DNA from: a virus
Taxonomy: Duplodnaviria > Caudoviricetes
Virus record (IMG/VR): IMGVR_UViG_3300030329_003045
Span: 1-53,344 of that record
Reading direction: 5' to 3' (one strand)
DNA length: 53,344 bases
Position numbers and translations under genes: made by a program
The notes under the pieces: model-generated
What the model saw: the letters and a program-made list of their open reading frames with translations, nothing else
Database searches by the model: none
Told to the model about the DNA's origin: nothing
Shown here: piece after piece, positions 404 to 40,729 of the stretch
Position numbering within the stretch: position 1 is the stretch's first letter
Layout: the number at the start of each line of letters is the position of its first letter

Positions 404-600
404 TTCGAGGTAGTATAAATGTAAGGAAAGTGAAGTGTTATGTAAAACACTATGTCAGTAGTAAGGTTGACATCTTGCTGACACAGGATTAAATGGTCAA
501 CAGCATAATTAAAAGCAAGTACTTACTATGTCTTTAAGACTTTGAAATAATACTCAGAGCTGAAATGCCTGCAATGTAGGTTTGAATCCTGCTCTCGTCA
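404..600 (+). ncRNA. tRNA-like RNA (GAA-centred loop) with ~130-nt structured insert in the D-loop
   Basis: Acceptor CGAGG 406-410/TCTCG 593-597, TA linker, D-stem GTAT 413-416/ATAC 550-553, loop CTGAAAT 560-566, T-arm GTAGG-TTTGAAT-CCTGC 576-592. Confidence 0.55.
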
Positions 601-639
601 TAAATTATAACTTGTAACTCTAACCAATAAGGAGACACT

Positions 640-837
640 ATGTCTATAAATAATGTAATACCCAATGATATTGTCTGTGAAGACAGTCTAGATAACCAAA
701 TGCAGGCTTTCTTAGCTGCTATGAGGGATATACTAGATACTCAATGTAGAATGATGGTAGATAAGGATAGTTATGTGGAGCGGAGAAGAGTAAAGAAGAT
801 ACGTGGGGCAAGATTTAAGGTTATCTCTAAAACCTAA
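640..837 (+). CDS. Hypothetical protein (65 aa)
   Basis: ORF with AAGGAG RBS, located between RNA elements. Confidence 0.65.
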   Translation: MSINNVIPNDIVCEDSLDNQMQAFLAAMRDILDTQCRMMVDKDSYVERRRVKKIRGARFKVISKT

Positions 838-844
838 GAATATA

Positions 845-922
845 GGGCATGATATGGTATTCGACTGCTTAAGGCTTCAAGGAGCTGGTAGTAGAACGTG
901 AGTTCGATTCTCACCATGTCCA
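845..922 (+). ncRNA. Minimal tmRNA-like RNA (tRNA-like domain only, no tag reading frame)
   Basis: GGGCATG/CATGTCC acceptor with G3-U70 and discriminator A; tmRNA-type stemless D region ATATGGTATTCGAC; T-arm GTGAG-TTCGATT-CTCAC preceded by GAAC; P2 capped by a short hairpin. Confidence 0.8.
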
Positions 923-927
923 CTAAC

Positions 928-989
928 AGAGAAGTGTATCCAGGTAAGGTATAATGCGAATTATAACCCATGATCCCAAAAGCTTCTCT
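928..989 (+). ncRNA. Small stem-closed RNA module with GNRA hairpin
   Basis: AGAGAAGT/GCTTCTCT closing stem; inner ATAAT-GCGA-ATTAT. Confidence 0.45.
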
Positions 990-1049
990 AAATTTTCTAT
1001 TGACGAATAGGAGACTTTTAGTTGATTGAACGATAACAACTATTAGTAT

Positions 1050-1144
1050 CGCGGGGTGGAGCAGCCAGGAATAGGATAAGCTATCTTATATAGCTCACTG
1101 GAAGAAATATCCAGAGGTCAGGGGTTCAAATCCCCTCCCCGCTT
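1050..1144 (+). tRNA. Initiator-tRNA-like RNA with D-loop hairpin insert and non-canonical anticodon loop (AGAAATA)
   Basis: CGCGGGGTGGAGCAGCC..GG..TAGCTC matches the bacterial tRNA-fMet scaffold, including an unpaired C1; stem CTGGA/TCCAG; T-arm AGGGG-TTCAAAT-CCCCT; 21-nt insert at 1070-1090; no CAT anticodon; no CCA. Confidence 0.75.
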
Positions 1145-1151
1145 AAGAATT

Positions 1152-1886
1152 TATGAACAACGAATAATAGGCCGCTTCGGGTCTTTGAGGATAGTATATG
1201 GTAACATATATAAAGTTAATAGCGCCAGTAATGGTCCAACGGAAGCAAGCAAGTATTGCTGCTGATCTCAATGGGGTAATCCCTGAGAGAATGGTAGTCT
1301 TTGCGATGGTAAGCGAGTGAGTCTGGTGACAGGCAATAAATAAACTTGTAAGGTACTTAAGCTGAGCATGTAGGGTGTTAAGCTGGGTATTATGAAGATA
1401 TGCTAATCTTGTAGTGATATAAGATATGTGCGTATAGAGATTTGATGTATCCTAAATACATTGGAAGAGTCTAGTAGAGTATTCACTGTCGTAAGATAGT
1501 GAGCTTTATCCACGAGCACTGGACTTGGATTGCCTAAAACTAACTTAATCGTTAAATAATATATAAAATAGAATATAAAAACGACAAAGTTCTTGTGGCG
1601 TTACAGAGCATAGGGCTCTAATCCCTTACACTTTTGTGAATAAGGGGCTGGATAGTTGGTCAACAACTTGAAGGTTTTGTGATGAAAGCGTCAGTCTTGG
1701 GTCTGCAGCCTGGGATGTCATTGTGACTTAATTGAGGTGAGTAGTTGCTGAAACAACTGTAACGTTAAGAGTGATAGTCTATAACTATTGAGCTTGCTGA
1801 TGTACTTCTGTCAAAGGGAGTGGATAAGAGGAGAATAAATAATACCTCGAAAGTGTCAGCGTATCAAGTGTAATCTCAACTTGTAA
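1152..1886 (+). ncRNA. GOLLD-like giant ncRNA
   Basis: ~730 nt without an ORF, downstream of a tRNA-like gene; many short GTAA/GCAA/GTGA-type hairpins in the 5' half; 3' end TACTTCT..AAAGGGAGTGGATAAGAGG..AATAAT.CCTCGAAAG..GTGTAATCTCAAC resembles the GOLLD 3' domain as I recall it; boundaries approximate. Confidence 0.7.
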
Positions 1887-1927
1887 TAAATACTCCAATA
1901 ATGGTAATTAACCAACAAGGAGTAATT

Positions 1928-2095
1928 ATGCCAAATAAACAAGCAAAAGAACGTAAACGTATTAAAGCTGAACTTAATAAATCTCTAAAACTGAATGGTA
2001 GGACTGCTAATCAGGTAAAAAAGATTAAAGCTAGAAATATTGAGAGAAAGAAGAAGCTTGAGAAACGTTTAAAGGAACGTGGGTTGCTTAGGTAG
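1928..2095 (+). CDS. Small highly basic protein (MPNKQAKERKR...GRTANQ)
   Basis: AAGGAG RBS before ATG 1928 (the ORF track starts at 1901); Lys/Arg-rich. Confidence 0.75.
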   Translation: MPNKQAKERKRIKAELNKSLKLNGRTANQVKKIKARNIERKKKLEKRLKERGLLR

Positions 2096-2424: not shown

Positions 2425-2669
2425 GAGTTTGTTAAGGAGTCGCTTGGGGTCGATAAGAACCCTTGCGATTAAAGAGTATAGTTTATGAGACTGGACTAGA
2501 AGGGTTGAGATCCTTTTAGTTAGCCATGAGCCGCAACGTGTGGTTGTTTGAGTGCTTGTGGTAAGTAGCAGACGTGTGAAACTAACTATTAATAAACTCA
2601 CCAAATTGGTAGGAGAGACAAGAGGTCTATAGAAGTGTGACAACAACCACTTAATAGCTATAGATCTTT
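2425..2669 (+). ncRNA. Unnamed ~245-nt structured RNA with long-range loop pairing
   Basis: Closing stem 2425-2435/2589-2599; internal hairpins; stem 2621-2632/2658-2669 whose loop AACAACCAC (2642-2650) complements GTGGTTGTT (2540-2548). Confidence 0.65.
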
Positions 2670-2726
2670 AACACCCATCATCGATAGGAATACCTGAAGG
2701 CTTTAACAAGCTGTTGGTGGGTGTTA
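2669..2726 (+). ncRNA. Small three-way-junction-like RNA module
   Basis: TAACACCCATCA/TGGTGGGTGTTA stem enclosing AGG-AATA-CCT and GCTT-TAAC-AAGC. Confidence 0.45.
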
Positions 2727-2759
2727 TAAAATTGATAATAACAATAACATGGAGGTCAC

Positions 2760-2918
2760 ATGGACAACAAAAAAACAATGTTAATAGTAGTTGGTTTAAT
2801 AGTAATTGCTTTATTTGGATGGGCAGTATCGGGAAGCTCAGATGATATTACTGAACCTGAAACTGTTGATACTGAAGCTGTTGACACTGAGTCTAACTCA
2901 GAAGAAACTACTGAGTAA
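2760..2918 (+). CDS. Small membrane-anchored protein with acidic tail (52 aa; not in ORF track)
   Basis: GGAGG RBS; MDNKKTMLIVVGLIVIALFGWAVSG followed by a D/E/T-rich tail. Confidence 0.75.
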   Translation: MDNKKTMLIVVGLIVIALFGWAVSGSSDDITEPETVDTEAVDTESNSEETTE

Positions 2919-2925
2919 TTTAAAA

Positions 2926-3006
2926 TAGGGCTGTAGTGACAGGCGAGTGATGGAGCGGTAATGCTTAATAAATGATATCCACACTAACGAGGGTCAATCA
3001 GCCCTA
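2926..3006 (+). ncRNA. Stem-closed RNA module
   Basis: TAGGGCTG/CAGCCCTA, TGAC/GTCA and inner GTG..TGGA/TCCA.CAC pairings. Confidence 0.45.
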
Positions 3007-3016
3007 AAAAACTGAC

Positions 3017-4200: not shown

Positions 4201-4285
4201 TAAAGGGAGAGTTACGGCTAAAACCACCATCCGTTAATATACTAGACCACATCGGAGTGCTAGTTAAGCGTGGTCTCTCTCTTTA
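4201..4285 (+). promoter_or_regulatory. Intergenic stem-closed RNA structure between Ubl and E2-like genes
   Basis: 11-bp stem TAAAGGGAGAG/CTCTCTCTTTA plus TTACG/CGTGG, just before the RBS at 4294. Confidence 0.5.
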
Positions 4286-4302
4286 TTAACCTTGGAGGGT
4301 AT

Positions 4303-5670
4303 ATGAATAATTATGAAGTAGTATATGTCGACGAACAAGACATTGGACAAGCTATAGATTTTATAGATTTAGATGCTATGGCTGAACACATTTATTTTGG
4401 CCCACAAGCTGAAATAATGGAGAAATTAAATCTATTTAACCAAAGAAATGACTGTAATTTAAGTGTTACTAAAACATTTAGATGGTCACCTGGTACTTAT
4501 GATAAAGTAGCTGAAATGATGATGAGAAGAGTTGGGTTGAGAAGAAGAGCATCTGGTATGTATAGTTATTTATCTAGAGAAGAGTATTATTGGGGTCCAG
4601 GAAGACAGAACATACAAGAAGATCTAAGAGATATGGATAGAATAATTACTAATTTAAGATATCAAGGAGTACAATGGTTAGAAGATCCATCTATATTAAT
4701 TGAAAGAAAAGAGACATTTAAGAATTATATATGTGAAAAATTCGAAGGTCTTCTTGAATTAATAGGAAAAATGGATAAAATAACCGTATTAGGTGTATTA
4801 TTAGAGCAAGATGGTAGTGCTACAACTAGAAGTTCTAGATTAGTTATAAATTTATGCTTACATCCAGGTGAAGTACAAATATATAATGCTAATAATGGAG
4901 GCACTCCAACACATGTGCAGAATCTACCAGCAGAGATGGATTTATTAGTAAGGATAGAAATGTATCCATTACAAGAAATGATAAATGAAAGACTAACTAG
5001 ATTTAATGTTCATACTTATGGAAGAACAGAATCTTATGATGATAGAGGTGCATTATATTTTCCTTATATAGCTAGAACTGATAGACGAAATAGTTGGAAC
5101 TCGCCTGAAGGGTATGGAACTATTTGTTATGGTGATGACTCTACTGATATTAATCGAGCATTAAACAATTTTGAATTACCAGCATATGCTATGTTATTAG
5201 TTAATTGGATGGGTAGATATACTCAAAATACTAATCCATATAATAATATTAAGACATTATATCATGGTGAGCCTAAATGGTTAAATGATGATTATAGAGC
5301 TATATTTGGTACAAATAACTGGGATGCATGTAGATATAGACCATCTGGGCATGATGATTACTGTGATACTAATGAGTGTGCATTAAGACATACTTGTGAA
5401 ATATACAAAACAGCATATCCAGAACCAGTAACGCCAGAGCAAGCCGAACAAATGACCTTGCAATGGGCTACTAGAATGGGTGGAGTTGGATCTAATGCTA
5501 GTCAACCGACAGCTGATCAGACTTGGGTTAATCCAGAAGCTGTTAGAGAAGAGCGTATTAATGCTGAAATGGATGCTGAAGAAGCAGAATTAGAAGCATA
5601 TCAAAGAGCTATGGAAGCTAGTATCGAATCAGAACAAGCTGCTGATAACATTATAGAAGAGGAGGAATAA
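4303..5670 (+). CDS. Putative prokaryotic E2-like (UBC-fold) conjugating enzyme with C-terminal Cys cluster
   Basis: FPYI...GYGTICYG resembles the E2 (H)PxI...GxICLG catalytic segment, followed by helices and NPY; Cys4 cluster near the C-terminus; operon context; start moved to ATG 4303 with GGAGG. Confidence 0.6.
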   Translation: MNNYEVVYVDEQDIGQAIDFIDLDAMAEHIYFGPQAEIMEKLNLFNQRNDCNLSVTKTFRWSPGTYDKVAEMMMRRVGLRRRASGMYSYLSREEYYWGPGRQNIQEDLRDMDRIITNLRYQGVQWLEDPSILIERKETFKNYICEKFEGLLELIGKMDKITVLGVLLEQDGSATTRSSRLVINLCLHPGEVQIYNANNGGTPTHVQNLPAEMDLLVRIEMYPLQEMINERLTRFNVHTYGRTESYDDRGALYFPYIARTDRRNSWNSPEGYGTICYGDDSTDINRALNNFELPAYAMLLVNWMGRYTQNTNPYNNIKTLYHGEPKWLNDDYRAIFGTNNWDACRYRPSGHDDYCDTNECALRHTCEIYKTAYPEPVTPEQAEQMTLQWATRMGGVGSNASQPTADQTWVNPEAVREERINAEMDAEEAELEAYQRAMEASIESEQAADNIIEEEE

Positions 5671-5972
5671 TGAGTTTTGTAACAGAAAATAGTATGAAAG
5701 CACATTACAAGAGATTATCTTGTAGAACTATTAAAATAAATGGCGTTAGACTTGATCTTGAGGTTTATAAAACGCCTGATGGTATGACATTTGAGGTAGT
5801 AGAACATGTTCCTGATACAGTATTTGATGATAATTATGTATCAAGACATGAAACACATATCTCTTGGGATAAAATAGTAGACGCTCCAGAAGAGCCTTTA
5901 CCAGAAGAAGATAATGAACCTTTAACAGAAGAAGACGATAGTCTAGGAAGAATGTACGGAGGAGTAAAATAA
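5670..5972 (+). CDS. Hypothetical acidic-tailed protein within the Ubl operon
   Basis: TAATG-coupled on both sides, between the E2-like and JAB genes. Confidence 0.7.
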   Translation: MSFVTENSMKAHYKRLSCRTIKINGVRLDLEVYKTPDGMTFEVVEHVPDTVFDDNYVSRHETHISWDKIVDAPEEPLPEEDNEPLTEEDDSLGRMYGGVK

Positions 5973-6919
5973 TGGAAGTTTATATAGATAAAGAATGTTG
6001 GGATAAGATAATAAATTATGCCAAAGCTGCTTATCATACTGAAAAGTGTGAAATAGGCGGTATGTCAGTAGTAACACAAGATAAAGATGGTGATTGGCTT
6101 ATTCAAGAGCCTGTAATACTAAAACAGGAGATAGGGAGCACTACTTGTGACCTAGATAAAGAGGAATTAGCTAAATATTACACTAAAATGGCTGTAAAAT
6201 ACAATGAAACCAACTTTAGATTCTGTTGGTGGCATAGTCATCACACAATGGGAGCATTTTGGAGTGGTACAGACATATCAAGTATAGATGAATATGGTGA
6301 AGGAGAGTCAGATTTAAGCTTTGCTCTTGTAGTAAACCTTAAAGAAGAGTATAAATGCAGAGTTTCTGTATGGAAACCAGTAGAAATTCATCAAGATGTT
6401 GAACTAAAGATACTTAGTGATAAGCCTGATGTAGAAATACCACTTGATATAGTTACTGAAGTTAAAGAAAAGTGTGAAACTAGATCAATAGTTAATACTG
6501 GATACTCTAAAACTCAAAATGGCAACACAACTTTGCCTTTATGGGACAATACTCGTAATAATTGGGCTAGTTATAAGATGCTAGAAGATGATTTAACCAA
6601 TGTATATGTCCCTAGTCAGCAAGAAATAGCTAATTTTGAGGCTAAATATGAGTATGCATGTATGAAAGCTCAAGAATTTCTACATCAAGTAACAGTTGGT
6701 GGCTGGTCTATGCATAAATTCAAGAAAGCAATCAGAGAAACTAACAAACAAATAGCAAAATATGGTGTTCAAATAGAAGAATTGAACAAAAGAGAGCTAA
6801 AAGAGTTCGTAGAAATGGAGTCAGCTCCATATGAACTTGTAGCTTCTGATGCTAAATTCGCTGATATTGCTGATGCAATGATGGAAATGCACAGTTATAA
6901 TGGAGGATACATGATATGA
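5972..6919 (+). CDS. JAB/MPN+ (JAMM) metalloprotease (Ubl-processing/deconjugating)
   Basis: E(IGG)...WWHSHHTMGAFWSGTD fits HxH-x7-S-x2-D. Confidence 0.9.
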   Translation: MEVYIDKECWDKIINYAKAAYHTEKCEIGGMSVVTQDKDGDWLIQEPVILKQEIGSTTCDLDKEELAKYYTKMAVKYNETNFRFCWWHSHHTMGAFWSGTDISSIDEYGEGESDLSFALVVNLKEEYKCRVSVWKPVEIHQDVELKILSDKPDVEIPLDIVTEVKEKCETRSIVNTGYSKTQNGNTTLPLWDNTRNNWASYKMLEDDLTNVYVPSQQEIANFEAKYEYACMKAQEFLHQVTVGGWSMHKFKKAIRETNKQIAKYGVQIEELNKRELKEFVEMESAPYELVASDAKFADIADAMMEMHSYNGGYMI

Positions 6920-7569
6920 TTAACTTAAGAAGTCAAGACATTGCAAATTTAGATAATGTTGAATTCCATATTGTAGGTTGCGGGGCTATTGGAAGCTCCG
7001 TGGCCATGCAATTAGTAAGATTGGGAGCAAATAACTTCTATTTGTATGATTTTGATAAAGTAGAAATACAAAATGTAGGTGTAAGCCAATACAATGAACA
7101 AGATGTAGGGCTGCCTAAAGTAGGTGCTTTAATAAATCATATGAAAAGAATAAATGTGTTGATAAAAGTTCAAGGATATATGTCTAAATTTACAAATTAT
7201 AGAGGTAGTAAAGAAGGTATATTGATTCTAGGTTTAGATAGTATGAAAGCTAGAAAAGATATAGTTGAATTGCTAGTAAATTGCCCTGATAAGCCTAAAA
7301 TAGTAATTGATGGCAGGATGGGAGCTGAACATTATCAGCAATACATATATGATAACATAACTATGGCTAAATATGAGAAAAATTGGTATTCTGATGAGGA
7401 ATCTGATCAAGAACCATGTACTCGTAAAGCTACAAGTTACTGTTCAAATATGAGTGGTAGTTTTATAGCAAACGCTGCAAAGAATATCGTTATGAAACAG
7501 CCATATTTTAAAGAAATTAGTTTCAACTTTTCAACATTAATACTTGATAAAAAGAAATTAGTTTCGTAA
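6916..7569 (+). CDS. E1-like ThiF/MoeB-family adenylating enzyme
   Basis: VGCGAIG, DFDKVEIQNV, GLDSMKAR, IDGRMG and putative catalytic Cys in EPCT. Confidence 0.92.
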   Translation: MINLRSQDIANLDNVEFHIVGCGAIGSSVAMQLVRLGANNFYLYDFDKVEIQNVGVSQYNEQDVGLPKVGALINHMKRINVLIKVQGYMSKFTNYRGSKEGILILGLDSMKARKDIVELLVNCPDKPKIVIDGRMGAEHYQQYIYDNITMAKYEKNWYSDEESDQEPCTRKATSYCSNMSGSFIANAAKNIVMKQPYFKEISFNFSTLILDKKKLVS

Positions 7570-15409: not shown

Positions 15410-18400
15410 CTAACAAATTTTTCCTCCTGATTCAATATCATGATACCTATCTCTTAAATCAGCAGGTTTTGTATGTCTATTAATAACCCTACCTTTGACC
15501 GTTGGAACGGACGTATTATCTGGGCCTTTCTCTAAAACAACTCTATTTCTAGTAGTATTTGTCCTTTTATCTAATTGCATATCCAATAAAGTAGATGAAT
15601 AGAATATATCTAAATATCTAGATAAGGATTTTACTGGATTAGCAAGTTCTCCTAAATTTTTATAATCAATACCAATAGTTTGTGAACTTTCCCATTCAGG
15701 AACATTAGGTTTCTTCTTGCCAGTAAAGGCAAGTTGAACTTGTTTCATCAATCTTTTAGCAAACCCAGCATCACCTCCATAATCAGTCTCAATAATTCTT
15801 TCATTATTTAAAGTCCAATTCAAAATAGTCTTCTGCAAATGTAAATCAGTTTTAAATGTAGGAATATATTGATTGTCTTTACCTATAGCATAACTCTCTA
15901 CTAATTGAGGTTGTAGTAAATATCTTAAAATCAAATCAACAGGATCAATATTTGTGTGTACTTGTGGGACCCATTTATCTAAGAAGTTCTTAATATCTAT
16001 ACCTTCTCTTAAAGCCTGCATCTCATAAATATCTTTACTTAAAACCCTATTAGTTAGAGACTCTTTTATTGCGCCTCTATACCCTGTACTTATTTTGAAT
16101 CTTAAGGCTCTTGCATCAGCTGTAAATTGTACCCAATTATCCATATGAGCGCTCGGAGACATAACCTCATCTCTGGTTACTTCAAATAAAGCTCTACTCC
16201 ATCTCATTTCATTTTCACTAAGATTAACCATTTTTTTAGGTCTAGTATCTATAATATAAGTCATCCCTTTATGTGTACGAATATTATCCCTTATATTACT
16301 CTTAGTATAATAACCTAAGAACTTAAGTTGATTATGCGATATATAATTCTCATCAGTTTTTCCGTGATTTAGATTACCTTCTTTACCTTCTTTATTAAGT
16401 TTGTTTATCTCAGTAACATCTACATCGCCTTTTATTGCATATATTGCAACCCTATCTCTCTTTGCTGCCTTTAAAACATTTTTAATTTTAATCTGACCAT
16501 TCTTCTTTCCAACAATAATTTGATTTTTAGGGTCTCTGATAACCATATCTCTAGCTAGCTGAACATCCATTATATCCATAGCTTGTTTTAAATTGGCTAA
16601 TCTATGTTGAAGTTTTTGTATCTTATTAGGATTTGCAAATGGTTCATTCATAAAATAATCAAATGAATTAATAACGTCATCGTGCTGTTTTTCGAGCAAG
16701 TTTCTTAATATACCATTATTCATTTGTTTCCTATACCTTTTTGGATCTGTCTGGCCAAAAGATTTTAAATTCAAAGCAAATTCATATTCTCCAGTAGCTG
16801 TTCTTCCTGTTAATATTTCAACAGGATCTTGTCCAAAGGCTCTAATAACTTCTACAAAATTCTCAATTCTATCAACAAAAATTCCAGCCTTTTGAAAATT
16901 CTTACCATTATCTAAACTTCTTAATCCTTCAAAATTAGTAGTAAACCAAGCTTTATTTTGATTTAAATCATAAATAGTTCTACCGCCTATAGACATAAAG
17001 AAAGGATTATTATCTGTTTTATCAGATAAAGCATCAATAGTAGGGACATTTTCAAATCTAAATCTTATTTTACCTAAAGTAACTGGTTCTCCAGTATATA
17101 TTTTTCTATATATCTGCTTTCTTGTAGCCTCATTTTTTACAAAATCCATATAATCTTTACCATAAAACATATCAACATACTCACTAAGCATCAAATCAGC
17201 TTCAGCTTTCTTACCTATGGTTCTATAGTAACTAATTCTATTCATCATTCTTTTACTTAAATATCTTGTAGGATTTAAAAAGAACTCAGACATCCTTCCA
17301 TATATATCTTTTATCTCTCTAGCTTCAGGATTTCTACTACCTGCTTCATCATATACGTCATTTTGGACCATATTTGCCTTTTTTAGCAACCTTACTACCT
17401 CAAAGAACATCTCCTTCTCTAATGTATTATTCTTTCCAAAATTAGGGTGATCTTTACCAAAAACGTTTACATCATCTACCGCATATTTATTAAATATATC
17501 GTCAGTTTCTCCTCTTTTCTTTAATTGCTGAGCTTTGTCTTTGTAATTTTTAGGGGTTCCAAAGAATAAAAAGTCCATTAAATCTGCCTGAGCTCTCATT
17601 ATTCTATGAATACCGCCATGAATATCTACAGAATTCTGCATAGTATCATAAAATTTACTTAACCATTTCCATTCAGGACTATCCAAGGACAATTTATCCT
17701 CATTAGAAAATTTCTTTAAAAGGTCCTTACCATCTAATTGCATTCCTAACTTATCAAGCCAAGATAATGCGTTCCTTATACCAACAACTTGACCTATAGC
17801 CATTTTTGCTTGAGATAATTTACTAGCATAACTGTGAAAACCAACATCAGTAGCTATTTCACCAGCTTTTCCACCATCTCCTATACCAAATATATTTATA
17901 TAATTTTCTTGACCAATAACATCTTGAACATCAAACATTCTGAAATCATCTTTCTTTCCATTCTGTCTAGCAAAAGCTTTTAATATTCCTTCTGGAAGTT
18001 TTTGATGCATATAAAAATGGTCACCATCATTATCACGTTGTAAAACAGTACGTAAATCATGCACATTTATTTCAGCTAAACCATTCATTTGTTTTAATAC
18101 TTTTCCTACTCTTAATATAACCTTATCATGTCCTAGAGCTGGTATAGCATGTCCTAACATACCAAAAGCTAACTTTAATTCTTGAGCATCTGTTATAGCC
18201 CTTTTTGTTAATTTTACTACTTTACCATTTTTTGTTATTGTATTTCCATCCATCAATCGAATAACATCAGAGTAATTTAATCCGTGTTTTTGTACCTTTT
18301 TATTAATCTCATTTAAAGTAACCTCAATACGTTTCTGCCTAGACTTGAAAGATTTAGAATCCATATTATAACCTTTTTTAAATAAATCACCCTCATATTT

Positions 18401-21400
18401 CTTACTACCAGTTGCACCATCCCAAGTCTCTATATCATGCCCTTTGTGCATTTTTATATGGTCATAAAATGGACTTTCATAAATAAACTTATTACCGTTC
18501 CATCTAACGATAACATCAATTCCATTATGGTCTCTAAATATAAAGGTCTCATCAACAATATTAGATACTCCATCATGTTTACCTAAAAGTCTTCTACTTT
18601 GATTTCTATTTATAGATGTCTCTCCATACTGTATAGTAGTTCTATTTTTATTAAATCTATCAATATGCCCTGCACGCATTTCTGTAAACTTAGCAAAAAT
18701 TGGAACAGCAAGATCAGAATTTACATTAGGAACTATAAAATTATCCTCTCCACCACGAACATGAGCTTGTTTTAAATCCTTATAATTCTGACTTCTCATT
18801 AATCTCTTTATTGCAGGCATTATTATAGGACTAGAAGGGCTAACACCGTACTCAAATACAAGCCTAGCTAAACCTTGATCTCCTAAGTTAAGTGGATTTC
18901 CTTCTGCTTCATTTATCCCATACAACCACTTAGTATAACCTCCAGGATCTTGTTCTATACCGCCCCATTCATTAGCTATTTGAAGAAACTTGTCTTGAAA
19001 TTTCATCCATTGCATTGCTTCTTTCATAACTGTTGGACTTTGAAAATCAAATATAGAAGGAGATATTACTCCTCCTTTAGCATTTTTAGATACAAATGAT
19101 ATGCCTATAGATTTAATAGGTATAATCATTCTATTTTGATCTTGAGCCATATGTAGTCTATCAAGACCTTTAGAAACATCGGTAGGTTTTAAATCTCTAT
19201 TAGTTATAGGTGTTTTACCAGTAAATGATTTAGCAGATTCAGAACCAATAATAATATCAGCTCCTTTAGGCATATATTGCGCTATATCTGGATGGTATAT
19301 TAGAAAACCTTTACCTAACATTTGATTATCTCCAGTAGCAAATATAATAGTTTTTGCACCATTAGGTTTATTTAAGAAATTATCAATATTTTCACCCTTA
19401 TGAGCCATAACAAGCCTCATAAAGTCTAAAGAAGCAAATTTAGCGCCATCAAATAATGAATTATCTAAGCTTTTTAAATTCTGTAAGTTTTCTTGATTTT
19501 GTAATAAAACACCTTGTAATATTTTATTCTGAACTTTATTTACATTTTTTGCAATCTGCGCATTTACATCGCTAATTTTTGACTCAATTTGTCTTTGAGT
19601 TATACCTTGAATATTTAATGGATGATTAATATCTCCCTTAACAGTTGACTCATCAAACACAACAGTGTCATGACCATCTTGTTTTAAAGCCTTTAAAGCA
19701 GCATCTCTAACCTTTTTATTGGGATGGCCCATAACACGTGCAAGTTTAGTTCCTGGAATATTTTCTGTAGATACTATCCAATTTAGAACTCTTTTACTCA
19801 TAGGTTGAGTAGTACCACCATCTGTTAGGTTTCCTCTTTTAAATATATTCATCTGTATTTTCTGAAGATTAGCTTTATCTCCAGCAGTCCAATCGCCTAG
19901 AAATTGATCAAACCCTTGTCTACCACCTTGAATATCAATATAAGGTAACATTAATTTTAGTTCAACTAAATGTCTAGCCCCAACATCTTCTGGTTTAGTC
20001 TTATCTCTTAATTGTCCAAATATATTCCTAAAGTTATCAAGCTCTTTATTTTTATTAGCATCTTTCAATCTTTTCTCAGTAGCTACAAACCAACTCTCAA
20101 AATCATTATTTAAATTCTCAATATTTTCTTTGGTTCTCGCAAATAAAACTCTATTTTTAGGTGATACTCTAACATAATAAAAGAAATCTTTAATATTTTC
20201 TTGCTTCAATAAAGAGGCAACTTCACTTTCAGATAACTCATAAGTCTCTGCTAATTTTCTTAATACCTCTTTATTAGCAGCAGATTCTCTTATAGAATTA
20301 TTTATAATCTTTTGAACTTCAACAGGATTTGATATTAACTGATCAAGACTTCCTGATCTTAATTTGCCTGCTATCTCAACATTAATACCATCGTCTAAAT
20401 AAATTACTTTTAATTTCTTATCACCAAAATAAGTTCTACCTGGATAAGTCACTGATGGAGTATCGTTATTAAATAAAGTTATAGCTCTTTTACCTTCACC
20501 ATAACCTATTATTTTAACTGTAGGTACAGATTGTTGATTCTCTATATAACTTAATATTTCTATTGCATGTCTCTCTTTGAACTGTCTATATAGTGCTACT
20601 CTTTCACTAGATGAAAGTGGTTGACCATTGCTATCGGTTCTCTGATTAATATGGTTAAGTATATAATCATTAAATGCTTTTACATCATCAGCTAATAAGG
20701 CTGCTTTGAACCCTTCATCTATTTTATTCTTTTTATCAACTAATCCGTACTCTCTTAAAACCTCAATAGGAGTCTTATGTCTTTCATGCATAGCCCTACC
20801 TTCATCTTGAGATTTTCTAATTAAAGACATTTCCTCATTTAATACATGGTCAGGATTATTTAATATAACTCTTTTATTAATTTCTTTATTTATTTCCTTA
20901 AATAATTCAACTGCCTCTCCAAATAATCCTCTTTCATTAACTTGTTCTATAACCTCAGATAACGATCTTTTTTGCTTATTAACGTCCTTAGTAAATAAAA
21001 CATTCCAATTATTTACAAGTTTATCCATAACAGCCTGAAAATCATTCTCTCCTAACCCATAACCTGCTTTACCCTCTAAAGCTAGATTTTCTATTTTTAC
21101 AATCAAATTATTTAGATGATTTAATCCTTGATATTCTCTTTTAAATATATCTGCAACTCTATTTTGTAGTGGCTCTAATATAGCTTCACGAACTCCCCAT
21201 CTATCTCCTTCTTGATCAAATTTATCCCTTTGTTCTTGAGTTAGGAGCTTCTTAATAGGATAAGTCCATTTAGATGTTTGTTTGCTAATATTACTCTTTA
21301 ATTCATTTAAAGTAATAATCATTTCATCAACATCTTTTTCAGTAGCGGTTCTATCTTTACCTTCAGCATTTGGTCTTTTAGCAGCTTTAGAAAAAGCATC

Positions 21401-24400
21401 TAATTCAGCAATTATAGATTCTATCTCCTTTATAGGATCTTTAACAGTTACCTCTTTTTCAGGATCTAATGAGTCTATAATATTGGTTATTTTAGCTTGA
21501 ATTGAGTTTAACTTAGCAGGAGCACCTCCATCAAGATTATATGCCTTTTCTAGTGCCGTTTTAGCCTTTCCCATAAGGTCCATAAGAGCATCATTACCTA
21601 AAAATTTATATACTCTCGCATAATCTTGTATATCAATACCTTCTGTAAGTAATGTTCCATCATCATGAACAGGTATTATATCAGTCTCTTTAACAGTATC
21701 TCCAAGAACATCTTTTAAAGATTTTCTACCTTTTAACATAAGTTGTATTTCTCCTTGAGAAAATCCTTCATCTAAAAGATATTGCTTTAAAGCTTCTTCT
21801 GATGGAATCTGAAACTTTCCATCTCTAAGAACACCTAATCTTTTACTTTGCGCATAATGAGCAGCTTTAAGGGCTCTTGAATCTAACCCTATATTATGAT
21901 ATATTCTATCTAAGTAAGCTTCACCTACTTTACCTTTAAAGTCAGCTTGAAATTCACGTGGCAATGCTTTAAATAAAGATATAAAAGAATCATTAGCAAC
22001 CTGAAGATCTGCTCTTTCAATCTTTCTATTAGGAGATTTTGTAGTTTGTCCTCCTAAATGTACTTTTCTTAAGTCAAATAGAGGCTTTAAAGTATGCAAT
22101 ATTAAGTCAGCTTCTTCTTTTACTTTACTTTCAGGAGTACCTTCTTTTGCGTCTCTAACATATTCTTCGATAACTCTTTTATATTCATTTATATCAGCAT
22201 GATACTTACCATCTATCATAAATATTTTATCAAGAAGTGTAGTTAAATCTTTATCTTTTACATTCTTTGATTTACCAGTAATAATATCAAACAATCTTTC
22301 ATTAGTAGCTACAGCCTTAGCTCCAGTATAAAACTTCATAAATTGATTACTATCAGGCATAATAAACTTACCTTTATTAGCAAAAGTTAATGAAAGTTCG
22401 CTCATATTTTTCTCTATAACTTCAGACACTCTAGCTTTTAACTGCTCAACATCCATATTATTTGCCTTAGCAATCCATTCCATAGTTCTTTCTGCCTTTA
22501 CTCCTGGCTGTATACGTGAAGCATCACCGTTGTTACGAAAAATATCTAAAACTCTATTTATATTATGTATCATGCCAAGATCAACACCATCTTCACCAAC
22601 AGATCTTGTTTCTGCATAAGTAATTTTACCATCTGAAGATACACTAATGTCAAATCCTAATTCATTTAATTCTGCAAACATCCTTTTATAAAGATTCATA
22701 GCTTTATTTAAAGGTTCTCCAGTCATTCTAATCATAGCATGAAACCATGCATCTGTACCTTTTTGACCTAAGGTCTGAATTTCCCCTGTACCCTTATCAA
22801 CACCTATAGATATTTCTCTAATATTGTTAGCAATTTTATTTATAGTTCCCTCAGATAGGAATAAAATACGGTCACTTAAAGATTTCGCATCTGGATTCTT
22901 TGTGATATTCATAATATCATACATATCAGCAAATTGTTGAACTAGTTTTAAATCAGGATTGTCAGCGCTATGCTTTCCAGTTGGATTTTTCTCTCCACCC
23001 TCTAAACCCTTATCAAAAGCGGTTAGTATTTTTTGACCTGTTTCAGAACCTGCTAGATGTTCACCTGTAGCAAATCCCTCTCCGTCCTTCCATTGCTTGA
23101 ATCTGAACAACATTTTTGCTCCATCGGCATCTACCCCTAGAATACGCATTGCCTCTGTATATGGCTTAAAATCAGCGAAATACTGCCTTTTATTCTTATG
23201 CCCCCATGCACCTCTACCTTTAACCATCATAAATGACATCATCATATGTGCACCAAGTTCTGAACTATCCATGTCACTCCAGGCATTTTTATCTAATACC
23301 CAAGGATTCATTACAAGAGTACCTGCAGCCATTCTTGGAAGAGACTTTCCTAAATCTGCTAAGTACTTTGGACCCCATTTACCAAGCATTTCACTAGAAA
23401 CTTGCTTATTTATCTTATTTAAAAGAACTTTAGTATGTTCAACATTCATTGTTCCGTTCTTTATTCTAGCTAATATATCATCAGCACCTTTATAAATTTC
23501 TTTTGTTTTACCTTTTCCTACAGTCCACCATGCTGTTCCTAGTTTATTTGAATTCCATACTGATCTTTTGCCTGAAGGAGATACCATTAATCTTAATAGG
23601 TTATTAACAACATCATCTCCATGTTCTGCTTGAATCTTACCATAATCTATATTTTTATATCTACCAAAATAAGCTTTAAATCCTGTAGTTAGATTATCAT
23701 TACCACCTCCAGGAAGAAGTCTAATTAAAGGAAAAGCTAAAGCCATTTTACCTGAATGGCTTAATGTCTCCATAGGGTCAAAATGTTCTCCATAAGCGTG
23801 AGATTTTACAGCACCAGAAATCAATCCATGAGCAGTCATCATAGCCATATCTTGAGTAGCCATACCTAGATATTTTGTTACACCACTTCTAACTCTACCA
23901 GGAGCAGCGCCACCTAACGCTCTTGCAGTCCACTCAGCAATATCATCTACATAATGTCCTGCAGCTAAATCATCAACCCATCTTCCAGCTAAATTAGTAG
24001 CATCTAGTTTAGTTAATTCAATTCCATGCTCTTTGAAAGCTCTAGAGATTGCACTTCCACCAGTACCTACTAAATTTTCTTTAGCCTCATCTAAAGCTCT
24101 ACCTTGGCTACGTAAATTCTTAATCCAACCAACGGTTAAATCATTTTTTGAAGTTTTTTGTATAGCAGCATAAACATCATCTCCAAACCCTTTAATTGCA
24201 TCATCTACAGATATACCTTTTGCTTTAGCAATTTCTTCTGCTTTTTCGATAATTCTATTAGCGGTTGGAGCGTCAAAGTTTTTAGTTATAGATTTTCTAG
24301 TTATATTATCAGCAACATCTTTAGCAGCTTTACCAACAAATTTATTCGCACCTAATCTAGTAACAGCTCTTCCAGCTCTAGCCATTTGACCAAATGCACC

Positions 24401-24703
24401 AAAGGGTAGAAATAACCCTAAACCTTCACCCATGATCATTCCAGCTCTCTCAGCGCCAGACTTCTCTTCCCAAGGAGTATCAGCATAAGGATTAATAAAA
24501 TCAGAAACTCCCCAAGTAACAGCAGAAGCTGCGCCCCAAAGAGTTGAACCTAGAAAGTCTAGTAAAGACCCAGAATCTCTCTCAATAGTATCAAAACTAA
24601 AAGCCCCTTCAGGAACATAACTGCCTGCATAGGGGTTAGTGTATAAATTAGGTCTTGTACTATTTGGAGAGGCTATATTATAGAAATCTCTTGATATTGC
24701 CAT
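15410..24703 (-). CDS. Giant virion protein, putative double-psi-beta-barrel RNA polymerase
   Basis: 3097 aa; LQRDNDGDHFY (DxDGD, nt 18020-18034) preceded by a HAIP..IL.V...GLAEI segment; upstream FDGA and GAKT...GKG motifs; located in the ejection-protein module. Confidence 0.65.
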   Translation of the reverse strand: MAISRDFYNIASPNSTRPNLYTNPYAGSYVPEGAFSFDTIERDSGSLLDFLGSTLWGAASAVTWGVSDFINPYADTPWEEKSGAERAGMIMGEGLGLFLPFGAFGQMARAGRAVTRLGANKFVGKAAKDVADNITRKSITKNFDAPTANRIIEKAEEIAKAKGISVDDAIKGFGDDVYAAIQKTSKNDLTVGWIKNLRSQGRALDEAKENLVGTGGSAISRAFKEHGIELTKLDATNLAGRWVDDLAAGHYVDDIAEWTARALGGAAPGRVRSGVTKYLGMATQDMAMMTAHGLISGAVKSHAYGEHFDPMETLSHSGKMALAFPLIRLLPGGGNDNLTTGFKAYFGRYKNIDYGKIQAEHGDDVVNNLLRLMVSPSGKRSVWNSNKLGTAWWTVGKGKTKEIYKGADDILARIKNGTMNVEHTKVLLNKINKQVSSEMLGKWGPKYLADLGKSLPRMAAGTLVMNPWVLDKNAWSDMDSSELGAHMMMSFMMVKGRGAWGHKNKRQYFADFKPYTEAMRILGVDADGAKMLFRFKQWKDGEGFATGEHLAGSETGQKILTAFDKGLEGGEKNPTGKHSADNPDLKLVQQFADMYDIMNITKNPDAKSLSDRILFLSEGTINKIANNIREISIGVDKGTGEIQTLGQKGTDAWFHAMIRMTGEPLNKAMNLYKRMFAELNELGFDISVSSDGKITYAETRSVGEDGVDLGMIHNINRVLDIFRNNGDASRIQPGVKAERTMEWIAKANNMDVEQLKARVSEVIEKNMSELSLTFANKGKFIMPDSNQFMKFYTGAKAVATNERLFDIITGKSKNVKDKDLTTLLDKIFMIDGKYHADINEYKRVIEEYVRDAKEGTPESKVKEEADLILHTLKPLFDLRKVHLGGQTTKSPNRKIERADLQVANDSFISLFKALPREFQADFKGKVGEAYLDRIYHNIGLDSRALKAAHYAQSKRLGVLRDGKFQIPSEEALKQYLLDEGFSQGEIQLMLKGRKSLKDVLGDTVKETDIIPVHDDGTLLTEGIDIQDYARVYKFLGNDALMDLMGKAKTALEKAYNLDGGAPAKLNSIQAKITNIIDSLDPEKEVTVKDPIKEIESIIAELDAFSKAAKRPNAEGKDRTATEKDVDEMIITLNELKSNISKQTSKWTYPIKKLLTQEQRDKFDQEGDRWGVREAILEPLQNRVADIFKREYQGLNHLNNLIVKIENLALEGKAGYGLGENDFQAVMDKLVNNWNVLFTKDVNKQKRSLSEVIEQVNERGLFGEAVELFKEINKEINKRVILNNPDHVLNEEMSLIRKSQDEGRAMHERHKTPIEVLREYGLVDKKNKIDEGFKAALLADDVKAFNDYILNHINQRTDSNGQPLSSSERVALYRQFKERHAIEILSYIENQQSVPTVKIIGYGEGKRAITLFNNDTPSVTYPGRTYFGDKKLKVIYLDDGINVEIAGKLRSGSLDQLISNPVEVQKIINNSIRESAANKEVLRKLAETYELSESEVASLLKQENIKDFFYYVRVSPKNRVLFARTKENIENLNNDFESWFVATEKRLKDANKNKELDNFRNIFGQLRDKTKPEDVGARHLVELKLMLPYIDIQGGRQGFDQFLGDWTAGDKANLQKIQMNIFKRGNLTDGGTTQPMSKRVLNWIVSTENIPGTKLARVMGHPNKKVRDAALKALKQDGHDTVVFDESTVKGDINHPLNIQGITQRQIESKISDVNAQIAKNVNKVQNKILQGVLLQNQENLQNLKSLDNSLFDGAKFASLDFMRLVMAHKGENIDNFLNKPNGAKTIIFATGDNQMLGKGFLIYHPDIAQYMPKGADIIIGSESAKSFTGKTPITNRDLKPTDVSKGLDRLHMAQDQNRMIIPIKSIGISFVSKNAKGGVISPSIFDFQSPTVMKEAMQWMKFQDKFLQIANEWGGIEQDPGGYTKWLYGINEAEGNPLNLGDQGLARLVFEYGVSPSSPIIMPAIKRLMRSQNYKDLKQAHVRGGEDNFIVPNVNSDLAVPIFAKFTEMRAGHIDRFNKNRTTIQYGETSINRNQSRRLLGKHDGVSNIVDETFIFRDHNGIDVIVRWNGNKFIYESPFYDHIKMHKGHDIETWDGATGSKKYEGDLFKKGYNMDSKSFKSRQKRIEVTLNEINKKVQKHGLNYSDVIRLMDGNTITKNGKVVKLTKRAITDAQELKLAFGMLGHAIPALGHDKVILRVGKVLKQMNGLAEINVHDLRTVLQRDNDGDHFYMHQKLPEGILKAFARQNGKKDDFRMFDVQDVIGQENYINIFGIGDGGKAGEIATDVGFHSYASKLSQAKMAIGQVVGIRNALSWLDKLGMQLDGKDLLKKFSNEDKLSLDSPEWKWLSKFYDTMQNSVDIHGGIHRIMRAQADLMDFLFFGTPKNYKDKAQQLKKRGETDDIFNKYAVDDVNVFGKDHPNFGKNNTLEKEMFFEVVRLLKKANMVQNDVYDEAGSRNPEAREIKDIYGRMSEFFLNPTRYLSKRMMNRISYYRTIGKKAEADLMLSEYVDMFYGKDYMDFVKNEATRKQIYRKIYTGEPVTLGKIRFRFENVPTIDALSDKTDNNPFFMSIGGRTIYDLNQNKAWFTTNFEGLRSLDNGKNFQKAGIFVDRIENFVEVIRAFGQDPVEILTGRTATGEYEFALNLKSFGQTDPKRYRKQMNNGILRNLLEKQHDDVINSFDYFMNEPFANPNKIQKLQHRLANLKQAMDIMDVQLARDMVIRDPKNQIIVGKKNGQIKIKNVLKAAKRDRVAIYAIKGDVDVTEINKLNKEGKEGNLNHGKTDENYISHNQLKFLGYYTKSNIRDNIRTHKGMTYIIDTRPKKMVNLSENEMRWSRALFEVTRDEVMSPSAHMDNWVQFTADARALRFKISTGYRGAIKESLTNRVLSKDIYEMQALREGIDIKNFLDKWVPQVHTNIDPVDLILRYLLQPQLVESYAIGKDNQYIPTFKTDLHLQKTILNWTLNNERIIETDYGGDAGFAKRLMKQVQLAFTGKKKPNVPEWESSQTIGIDYKNLGELANPVKSLSRYLDIFYSSTLLDMQLDKRTNTTRNRVVLEKGPDNTSVPTVKGRVINRHTKPADLRDRYHDIESGGKIC

Positions 24704-39413: not shown

Positions 39414-40729
39414 TATCTGCCTCCTGCTGGCTGCTGTTTTGGAGCTTCAATCATAAAAGCTTCAGCATATTGTTGTCTAAAATTTTGTATTAATTGGCTT
39501 TGTTGTTGAAATTGAGCAGCTAATTCTTGTCTTCTAGCTTGCGCTTCTGCAGTATAAGTTTGAGCTGATTGTAAATAAGATTGCGCTGTACTAACATATG
39601 CTTGAACAGCTTGAGTTTTAGCAGATGTAAATCCAGCTCTAGCTTGAACTTCTGCGCTCCATCCAGCTATCTCAGAAGATAAGGTTTGTGCTACAGCGTT
39701 CCATTCAGCTAAATGAGCTTGAGCTCTTTGAATCTCTGTTTGAGCAGTTTGTAAAGTAGCCGCTACCATTTCAGTATCTTCATCATTCAACCAAAATCCA
39801 ACACTTTTAGGTTTAGCATCATCACCAGATCCAGAATCTTCATCTGTTTCAAAACCAGTATCAATAGCATCTCTAGCTAATTCTAATGCATCTTGTACAT
39901 GAGCCAACCCTATACCTGATTTATATTGAGTTTCATCACCAAATAAAGCAGGACCATCTGCACTTTCATTTGCTCTAAAGTTATTTATAGCATTTCTCAT
40001 TCCAGTAAATGCTGCAGGAAAATCACTACTACCACTAGCAGAATCAACCTGTGCTGCAATTTCTGCTGCTTCATACTTCGCTAACAAAACTTCAGCAACA
40101 GCAAGATCAATATTAGTCTTAATTGCACCTAAAGCTGCAGTTATATCACTATTAGCGCCACTTGTATTAGCAATTGCAGCTTCTAATGATCTTATTGAAG
40201 CAAATAATACTACTAAATATACTTTATCTTTAGGGAAATAATTAAGATCATTATGATTATATGCTAAAGTAGAATCGCTACTATTAACAGGAGTTTCATT
40301 TACATAATAAATCTTATAAGAATCTGCTCCGCCTGATGAAGGTTCTGGATAAACTGAAACAGCCCCATCACCAGCTCTTAAAAAGGCTGGATTAAATTTA
40401 GACGCATAATGTATACTACTTGCATCTTCAACTCTTGACTGAACATCTAAAGTTATTTCTCTACAACCCCTCCAATCATCATTAGTTCCAGACTCTCTTA
40501 CAACAGAAATTAACTTACCTATATTAGCTCCTAATCCACCCTGACTATCAGAAGGATCTGTTAATCTAGCAAATAATGATGCATCTTGAGGTTTCATAGC
40601 GAGATGTTTTTGTGTAACATCAATAACTCCGTCAGTTAACATCTGTGTTAATTGAGTTTCAGTCGGAACAGTACCAGAACTACTAATAGTTATTCCAGTT
40701 AACATCCTTACTTGATCATCAAAATTCAT
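39413..40729 (-). CDS. Head-tail adaptor-like protein with long coiled-coil extension
   Basis: LTDG..DV, YASKFNP, VYPEP, YFP...YLVVL.AS; Ala/Gln coiled coil. Confidence 0.6.
   Translation of the reverse strand: MNFDDQVRMLTGITISSSGTVPTETQLTQMLTDGVIDVTQKHLAMKPQDASLFARLTDPSDSQGGLGANIGKLISVVRESGTNDDWRGCREITLDVQSRVEDASSIHYASKFNPAFLRAGDGAVSVYPEPSSGGADSYKIYYVNETPVNSSDSTLAYNHNDLNYFPKDKVYLVVLFASIRSLEAAIANTSGANSDITAALGAIKTNIDLAVAEVLLAKYEAAEIAAQVDSASGSSDFPAAFTGMRNAINNFRANESADGPALFGDETQYKSGIGLAHVQDALELARDAIDTGFETDEDSGSGDDAKPKSVGFWLNDEDTEMVAATLQTAQTEIQRAQAHLAEWNAVAQTLSSEIAGWSAEVQARAGFTSAKTQAVQAYVSTAQSYLQSAQTYTAEAQARRQELAAQFQQQSQLIQNFRQQYAEAFMIEAPKQQPAGGR

Follow-up and report, generated by a model that had tools for sequence, protein, structure and literature searches.

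A probable tmRNA reduced to its tRNA-like domain in a marine phage, and the large family of mini-tmRNAs to which it belongs

Near the start of a 53,344-nt phage sequence from IMG/VR (record IMGVR_UViG_3300030329_003045, positions 1 to 53,344; this whole stretch is called the window here), the plus strand carries a cluster of RNA genes, the first of which, at 845-922, is the subject of this report. It starts 7 nt past the stop of an open reading frame (ORF) of 65 amino acids (aa) and is followed by an aberrant tRNA-like gene and a GOLLD RNA (Table 1). A preliminary description made from the letters of the sequence had read the element as a transfer-messenger RNA (tmRNA) in which nothing but the tRNA-like domain (TLD) is present, with a G3-U70 pair, A73, the word TTCGAC, GAAC and a perfect T arm as its hallmarks. 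We believe this reading is almost certainly right: the Rfam tmRNA model aligns to the element from end to end, a model built from its family recognizes it, the family members covary in the helices that make up the fold, and the TLD-only tmRNA of Mycobacterium phage DS6A fits the same model. The element belongs to a large family of mini-tmRNAs, and it is the family, more than the single copy, that allows the interpretation developed below.

The anatomy of 845-922 is that of the head of a tmRNA with nothing attached to it. Its third acceptor pair is the wobble G847·U919, the equivalent of G3·U70, and its stemless D-loop analogue corresponds to the tmRNA region that contacts SmpB. Directly 3' of A922 stands CUA, so that CCA is not encoded by this copy. 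The minimum-free-energy fold of the element (G+C content 47%) has a z-score of -2.46 and contains a P2 hairpin besides the acceptor stem and the T arm. For P2, this single-sequence fold chooses the register ACUGCU/GGUAGU, as did the preliminary description; the helix is there, but the register is shifted by 2 from the one that the family supports, CUGCU/AGUAG, in which 865-869 pair with 890-894. The closure of P2 is short, as had been said, but it comprises 20 nt rather than about 17, and these form an internal loop and a 5-bp hairpin, not a plain loop. Within those 20 nt there is no mRNA-like domain, no resume codon and no tag frame with a stop, and no sequence is available anywhere in 845-922 to form one of the pseudoknots of the ring PK1-PK4, so the absence of pseudoknots and of a tag ORF is borne out.

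Table 1. Positions of the mini-tmRNA, its parts, its RNA neighbors and related copies (TLD, tRNA-like domain; R1, covariance model of the family; MAG, metagenome-assembled genome).
Feature	Sequence	Position	Strand	Basis or remark
Mini-tmRNA gene, TLD only, 78 nt to the discriminator	window	845-922	+	Rfam tmRNA model 1-374; R1 67.1 bits
Acceptor stem, 5' strand GGGCAUG; G847 = G3	window	845-851	+	7 of 7 pairs with 915-921
Stemless D-loop analogue, ends UUCGA, then C865	window	852-864	+	aligned to tmRNA consensus
P2 helix, 5' strand CUGCU	window	865-869	+	pairs with 890-894
Apical module closing P2: internal loop UAA / GGU and 5-bp hairpin (873-877 with 882-886), CAAG loop	window	870-889	+	fold
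P2 helix, 3' strand AGUAG	window	890-894	+	Rfam alignment, family covariation
GAAC, variant of the tmRNA GGAC junction preceding the T arm	window	894-897	+	minority variant, 4 of the 73 unique sequences
T arm: 5-bp stem GUGAG/CUCAC, 7-nt loop UUCGAUU	window	898-914	+	sequence, fold
Acceptor stem, 3' strand CAUGUCC; U919 = U70	window	915-921	+	pairs with 845-851
Discriminator A73	window	922	+	sequence; A in 74 of 74 family sequences
Aberrant tRNA-like gene	window	1050-1144	+	127 nt downstream of the mini; ARAGORN 'tRNA-Stop (tta)', anticodon UUA
GOLLD RNA	window	1467-1882	+	RF02032 168.4 bits, cut-off 150
Mini of Microbacterium phage Eden, unannotated, in tRNA array	NC_048017	~40182-40270		R1 36.5 bits, divergent D region
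Mini of Streptomyces phage BRock, unannotated, in tRNA array	NC_048650	~97143-97220	complement	66.8 bits
Mini of Streptomyces phage LuckySocke, unannotated, in tRNA array	OR725497	17977-18054		64.3 bits
Mini beside GOLLD	L099	2512-3013	-	GOLLD 2604-3013, mini 13 nt later, same strand
Mini beside ROOL	L048	1831-2635	-	order tRNA-Met, mini, ROOL (1831-2432), same strand
Minis in bacterial genomes or MAGs	L163, L177, L198, L218, L223, L230, L236			full acceptor stem

The Rfam tmRNA model (RF00023) aligns to the element over its positions 1-374, with 312 consensus positions replaced by 18 nt, at 45.4 bits where the gathering score is 47 (E 5.7e-17, 421 bases searched), and a separate search with RF00023 found the same place at E 1.7e-18. 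Because the score falls just below the cut-off, a default Rfam gathering scan omits 845-922. ARAGORN, which the preliminary description had proposed to run beside Infernal, calls neither a tmRNA nor a tRNA there. An ordinary tRNA-Ala was considered for the element and rejected: it lacks the D stem, the anticodon arm and an alanine anticodon, ARAGORN finds no tRNA, and Rfam clan competition keeps the tmRNA model with no tRNA match at 845-922. Nor did ARAGORN call any mini-tmRNA correctly in 60 related loci, described below; three of its calls that overlap minis look spurious, one for a "tmRNA" of 343 nt in L003 and one each in L034 and L057 for an unusual tRNA, and in L003 Rfam favors an 85-nt form at 69.9 bits, the longer form not being strictly excluded. 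Annotation pipelines that rely on ARAGORN therefore overlook mini-tmRNA genes.

The relatives come from IMG/VR, where a pattern consisting of the word UUCGAC, a gap of 15-45 nt, and GRAC with T-arm words matched at least 119 loci. With the window added, 120 loci were examined, and a locus was accepted if a 5' strand beginning with GG, 11-18 nt upstream, paired at 7 of 7 positions with the 3' strand. A full 7-bp acceptor stem in register was present in 95 of the 120 (94 of the 119 IMG/VR loci, plus the window), and these reduce to 73 unique sequences of 64-91 nt; the 25 loci dropped held ordinary tRNAs or the 3' ends of some other RNA, or could not be assigned clearly. The search of viromes for TLD-only homologues that had been suggested has thus returned a family, from whose 73 unique sequences we built the covariance model R1; the window copy scores 67.1 bits with it. 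Realigned together with the copy from phage Eden, the same sequences give an alignment of 74 rows in which standard pairs fill 98.9% of the pair cells, compared with 71.5% in shuffles (0 of 500 shuffles were as high), and in which 343 cells carry changes on both sides where 94 are expected; sliding the partners by 1-3 columns lowers pairing to 45-57%. P2 is paired in 96.2% of its cells, with four of its five pairs changing on both sides and C865-G894 invariant in 74 of 74, while the T stem is paired in 100% of cells and changes on both sides in three of five pairs. Neither P2 nor the inner T-stem pairs had been pre-filtered for pairing. In the acceptor stem, pairs 4-7 covary freely, but not one of the 74 sequences departs from G1-C72, G2-C71, G3·U70 or A73. 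The junction word is GGAC in 69 of the 73 unique sequences and GAAC in the remainder.

Covariation of this kind also bears on the suspicion, voiced with the original reading, that homologues might show the element to be what is left of a full tmRNA in decay; an attP site left behind by integration into host ssrA, likewise devoid of RNA function, would be a second form of the same idea. It has some basis, in that tmRNA genes are common integration sites (PMC11915505) and the closest relative of the window phage is without the element. All helices of the element are intact, however, and its 5' and 3' halves covary across the family. An attP would need the 3' part alone, whereas both halves of the TLD are present, and neither a tyrosine nor a serine recombinase (PF00589, PF00239) was matched in the record, which is 99% complete by CheckV. 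Moreover, no full-length tmRNA was found in the window phage, or, at this place or elsewhere, in any of the 49 viral records that carry a mini-tmRNA. On the intact, covarying halves and the lack of an integrase we have rejected both the decaying fragment and the attP remnant, and a relic can be given hardly any weight.

The layout that closes P2 in the window copy recurs in most members of the family. In our reading of the folds (columns 34-57 of alignment A2), about 45 of the 73 unique minis have one apical module in common, examples of which are L079, L019, L127 (679-758) and L248 (1191-1268). Its 5' side is a purine-rich internal loop (U-A-R-R), its 3' side reads R-M-C, and between them stands a small hairpin that in most cases opens with two C-G pairs. 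The module is nearly identical in DS6A, in the Streptomyces phages BRock and LuckySocke and in many IMG/VR copies; about 10 minis have a plain 7-8-bp hairpin in its place. The P2 sequence itself is shared with the window copy, among the matches listed, only by L011 and L028.

The family copies span 43%-77% G+C and thus belong to phages of many kinds of host. Among cultured phages, unannotated minis lie within the tRNA arrays of Eden, BRock and LuckySocke. The Streptomyces phages pSt2308 and GiJojo match by blastn alone, and the GiJojo site is annotated as a hypothetical protein. Three further candidates were rejected, namely Gordonia phage Woes, where the T arm alone matched (16.8 bits), Xanthomonas phage Xoo-sp13, where the acceptor stem is broken (33.9 bits), and KVP40, which has no R1 match. 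Window positions 600-2000 found no blastn match among cultured phages, and an 81-nt query of the element gave partial matches only, which covered either the T arm or the 5' half. ARAGORN places a tRNA on the same strand within 130 nt of the mini in 8 of the 60 loci scanned, and 46 contain no separate tRNA within the stretch scanned; some minis stand inside arrays of up to 26 tRNAs. A similar pattern scan of bacterial species genomes yielded 7 minis among at least 120 matches, the rest being 3' ends of normal tmRNAs, and the short form is for this reason mainly a phage trait; among the titles listed, the seven bacterial carriers include Saccharibacteria, Gemmatimonadota and Achromobacter. None of the 49 other viral records with a mini-tmRNA (15 of them at least 90% complete) encodes SmpB, nor was SmpB found in the window phage.

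The window phage, from marine samples, looks podovirus-like, with genes for a P22-type portal, an SU10-type capsid protein and the terminase subunits on the minus strand and for ERF, a DnaB-like helicase and a RusA-like resolvase on the plus strand. An ORF of 3097 aa (15410-24703, minus strand) lies inside the structural gene block. Downstream of the mini-tmRNA, the tRNA-like gene is matched by the Rfam tRNA model in its T arm alone, at 14.7 bits. We take its acceptor and T arms to resemble those of an initiator tRNA; its middle can form two alternative hairpins of 5 bp, both of which have loops of 7 nt, so that the gene may contain either a D-loop insert of about 21 nt or a long variable arm. 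The anticodon assigned to it might bring to mind wholesale recoding of UAA, against which the long ORFs under code 11 argue. Metatranscriptome contigs from four runs in three studies cover approximately 1179-1828, and nothing else in 600-2000, and two of them start at 1179, so GOLLD is probably expressed, from a start about 290 nt upstream of the Rfam match. Searches of 20 further ORFs with PHROGs and Pfam gave no function near the RNA cluster. The nearest IMG/VR relative, L125, has 75% identity in the 466-aa protein and, beginning at about 2139, keeps the same order as the window in collinear fashion; neither it nor L126 has a mini-tmRNA, a tRNA or any Rfam family above the gathering cut-off, GOLLD included.

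The preliminary description had also placed the element in a phage that brings its own protein-tagging system. A ThiF/E1-like protein is indeed encoded at 6916-7569 on the plus strand (68 bits), following a weak Prok-JAB match at 5972-6919 (23.8 bits, cut-off 25), and upstream of the latter are ORFs of 466 and 100 aa with no family match; 4270-7569 on this strand may hold a module for ubiquitin-like conjugation. Among the ORFs neighboring the ThiF/E1-like protein, however, none was recognized as a ubiquitin-like or E2 protein, and no connection of these genes to the RNA was found, so that statement holds only in part. DNA similarity to L125 skips window positions 5608-5968, which hold the 100-aa ORF and to which about 40 nt correspond in L125.

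The company of the mini-tmRNA raises the question of whether it is needed only as a site. As a tRNA-like processing signal, it would be cut by RNase P or RNase Z and thereby shape its neighbors, the tRNA-like gene and GOLLD, with which it forms a same-strand cluster. A mini also abuts GOLLD in L099 and ROOL in L048. These are, however, the only two of 28 IMG/VR loci scanned with Rfam in which a giant structured RNA lies directly beside the mini, as it does in the window; the other 26 showed neither GOLLD nor ROOL, and nhmmer searches of the loci with GOLLD and ROOL queries, which are of low sensitivity, returned only the query loci themselves. The majority of loci without a separate tRNA speaks in the same direction, and since any tRNA shape would serve for processing, the tmRNA-specific D region and the alanine identity are left unexplained. 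We regard a processing signal as very improbable. Pistol ribozymes were seen 2-3 kb from the mini in L063 (5916-6012, minus strand) and L073 (6292-6379, minus strand).

A stronger indication of function lies in the ends of the molecule. CCA follows A73 immediately in 35 of the 73 unique sequences, where chance would place it in about 1 of 64, an enrichment of about 30-fold. Together with the invariance of G3·U70 and A73 amid covarying pairs 4-7, this leads us to infer that the family RNAs are tRNA-like in their maturation and are alanylated; a helix that merely needed to exist would not preserve a wobble pair. Judged by its sequence, the window RNA would accordingly be alanylated and bind SmpB and EF-Tu as well. 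The SmpB would have to be that of the host, because neither the window phage nor the 49 other records supply one. The lack of a phage SmpB is equally what one would expect of a pure sponge, which titrates host SmpB away from tmRNA and for which charging and entry into the ribosome are irrelevant. The preliminary description had proposed such a decoy as one possible role, an idea already published for the DS6A phage RNA (PMC4131195, PMC11915505): a molecule similar to that RNA is reported to inhibit tmRNA strongly whether or not it can be charged, perhaps by titrating SmpB (PMC4131195), and according to the tmRNA database paper of 2025, the DS6A form acts in E. coli as an inhibitor of the endogenous tmRNA (PMC11915505). 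The sponge fits this experiment well. It has no need, however, of the alanine identity set, of which the wobble G3·U70 could easily be "repaired" and yet is kept along with A73 throughout the alignment, nor of the enriched CCA. These features argue against a pure, uncharged decoy, and we consider one unlikely.

We therefore favor a model in which the mini-tmRNA acts as a charged molecule on stalled ribosomes, and would put its probability at roughly one in two. In this model, the RNA would be excised like a tRNA and receive its CCA from host enzymes; host alanyl-tRNA synthetase would charge it through G3·U70 and A73; and it would bind host SmpB at the elbow of the D loop and T loop. With EF-Tu, it would then move into the A site, left empty where a ribosome has stalled on a broken mRNA, and accept the nascent chain, to which a single alanine and no degradation tag would be added because the RNA has no message part. 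The net outcome would be competition with host tmRNA both for SmpB and for stalled ribosomes, such that the products of broken mRNAs, those of the phage among them, escape ssrA tagging, and the ribosome would finally be freed by other host factors. Two steps have biochemical or structural precedent: in vitro, the nascent peptide is transferred to a TLD-only tmRNA with SmpB (PMC3895274, with reference to Shimizu and Ueda 2006), and the complex of a truncated tmRNA with SmpB and EF-Tu has been solved on the ribosome, in the A site (PMC8363625).

Whether inhibition is what is selected is a separate matter. The same molecular steps would serve if the benefit to the phage were ribosome rescue without tagging, the other role suggested in the preliminary description, rather than inhibition of the host system. 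Tag-less mitochondrial tmRNAs, whose conservation goes along with that of SmpB, probably continue to be of use where mRNAs are incomplete (PMC11915505), and minis often stand amid tRNAs that support translation, in 8 of the 60 loci and in Eden, BRock and LuckySocke. On the other hand, normal termination does not release a ribosome that has no stop codon, and the sole experiment cited in PMC4131195 and PMC11915505 reports inhibition of tmRNA, not rescue. Rescue and inhibition differ only in the consequence that is selected, and the data here do not separate the two; we think it rather unlikely that rescue is the selected benefit.

Several observations weigh against the charged, ribosome-entering mini-tmRNA that we favor. 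The published inhibition by a DS6A-like molecule needed no alanine charging (PMC4131195), and so fits a plain sponge too. The proposed steps do not account for the route by which a ribosome holding peptidyl-Ala-TLD is released. Part of the apparent conservation comes with the sampling: invariance of UUCGAC, GRAC and the T loop is no evidence, because the search pattern required these words, and acceptor pairing in the family is not independent evidence, because it was the filter for inclusion. The window copy also fails the Rfam gathering cut-off that 48 of the 49 viral relatives pass (51-81 bits, 67-94 nt), and it has the minority GAAC junction and no encoded CCA. A scan of 1-2600 for promoters and terminators gave 13 promoter-like sites against 10.3 expected and no terminators, and none of the sites stands out near the mini. 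None of the metatranscriptome contigs from the four runs covers 845-922 or 1050-1144, although contigs rarely capture such short RNAs and this result carries little weight. Finally, since the relative L125 does without it, the RNA cluster is an accessory, dispensable module.

In a more elaborate model, the mini-tmRNA would be one of several working components in a set of phage RNAs directed at the translation apparatus of the host. Its companions may be the initiator-like, aberrant tRNA and a giant RNA (ROOL in L048, GOLLD in L099 and in the window), and the apical module may be a docking site for a further partner and not a mere cap. If this were true, the role of the RNA would go beyond competition for SmpB; it might, for instance, supply alanine over and over or pass stalled ribosomes on to a pathway specific to the phage. 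We hold this model to be improbable.

By itself, the window copy adds one case to a peculiarity already published, the DS6A type. Its own particularities are the sub-threshold Rfam score, the GAAC junction, the missing CCA and the GOLLD neighbor. The breadth of the family, in contrast, goes well past the published record, with at least 94 IMG/VR mini loci against the 9 "standard, no CDS" sequences in the tmRNA database, which lists 79 phage tmRNAs in all (PMC11915505). It would seem that phages have, on repeated occasions, retained nothing of tmRNA but its alanine-accepting head, which suggests that control over stalled ribosomes matters during infection. In our opinion, the family's breadth in phages, its conserved apical module and its occasional pairing with GOLLD or ROOL are worth following. 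No mention of a mini-tmRNA beside GOLLD was found among the papers matched on GOLLD and tmRNA, including passages of PMC6582537, and a search for phage mini-tmRNAs under names such as "mini-tmRNA", "tagless tmRNA" and "TLD-only" found none.

Known systems place the element quite precisely. With the canonical tmRNA of RF00023 it shares the alanine identity elements, UUCGAC, the GRAC junction, the T arm and the base of P2, whereas the pseudoknots, resume codon and tag frame, about 312 consensus positions, are absent from it. Full-length phage tmRNAs, such as those of the Bxz1 group of mycobacteriophages and that of marine phage Melnitz, which is in two pieces, are likewise phage-encoded and often near tRNAs (PMC4131195, PMC9004378), but they keep the tag frame that the window copy is without. 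Organellar tag-less tmRNAs, from jakobid and oomycete mitochondria and in plastid forms of about 65 bp, resemble it in having no tag frame (PMC11915505). The organellar forms are organelle-encoded, usually as permuted two-piece genes, and have a dedicated imported SmpB, whereas the window copy is a one-piece phage gene that would need the SmpB of its host. In naming protist mitochondria alone as precedent, the preliminary description overlooked a phage and overrated the novelty of the element.

That phage is DS6A, listed as "Mycobacterium phage DS6A (TLD only)" by Hudson, Lau and Williams (PMC4131195), its RNA being credited to Mao et al. 2009 there and in PMC11915505. We locate the RNA at JN698994 28478-28557, where the record leaves it unannotated and R1 scores it at 62.6 bits. 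The two differ in sequence and setting. They are too diverged for blastn, with which a DS6A query matched DS6A records only; DS6A has 70% G+C and an actinobacterial host, against 47% G+C and a marine podovirus-like phage; and the window copy has GAAC for the usual GGAC, no encoded CCA and a GOLLD RNA at its side. In architecture they are the same. In both, the acceptor stem has 7 bp and includes G3·U70, the discriminator is A73, the D region has no stem, a T arm is present, a short P2 is closed by an internal loop and a small hairpin, and the gene is phage-borne and has no tag frame. The window copy has the structural marks of a DS6A-type RNA, from the complete TLD and the short P2 hairpin to a length within about 65-90 nt and a phage genome, and because DS6A itself fits R1, we regard the RNA at 845-922 as a further DS6A-type RNA and not as a new kind.

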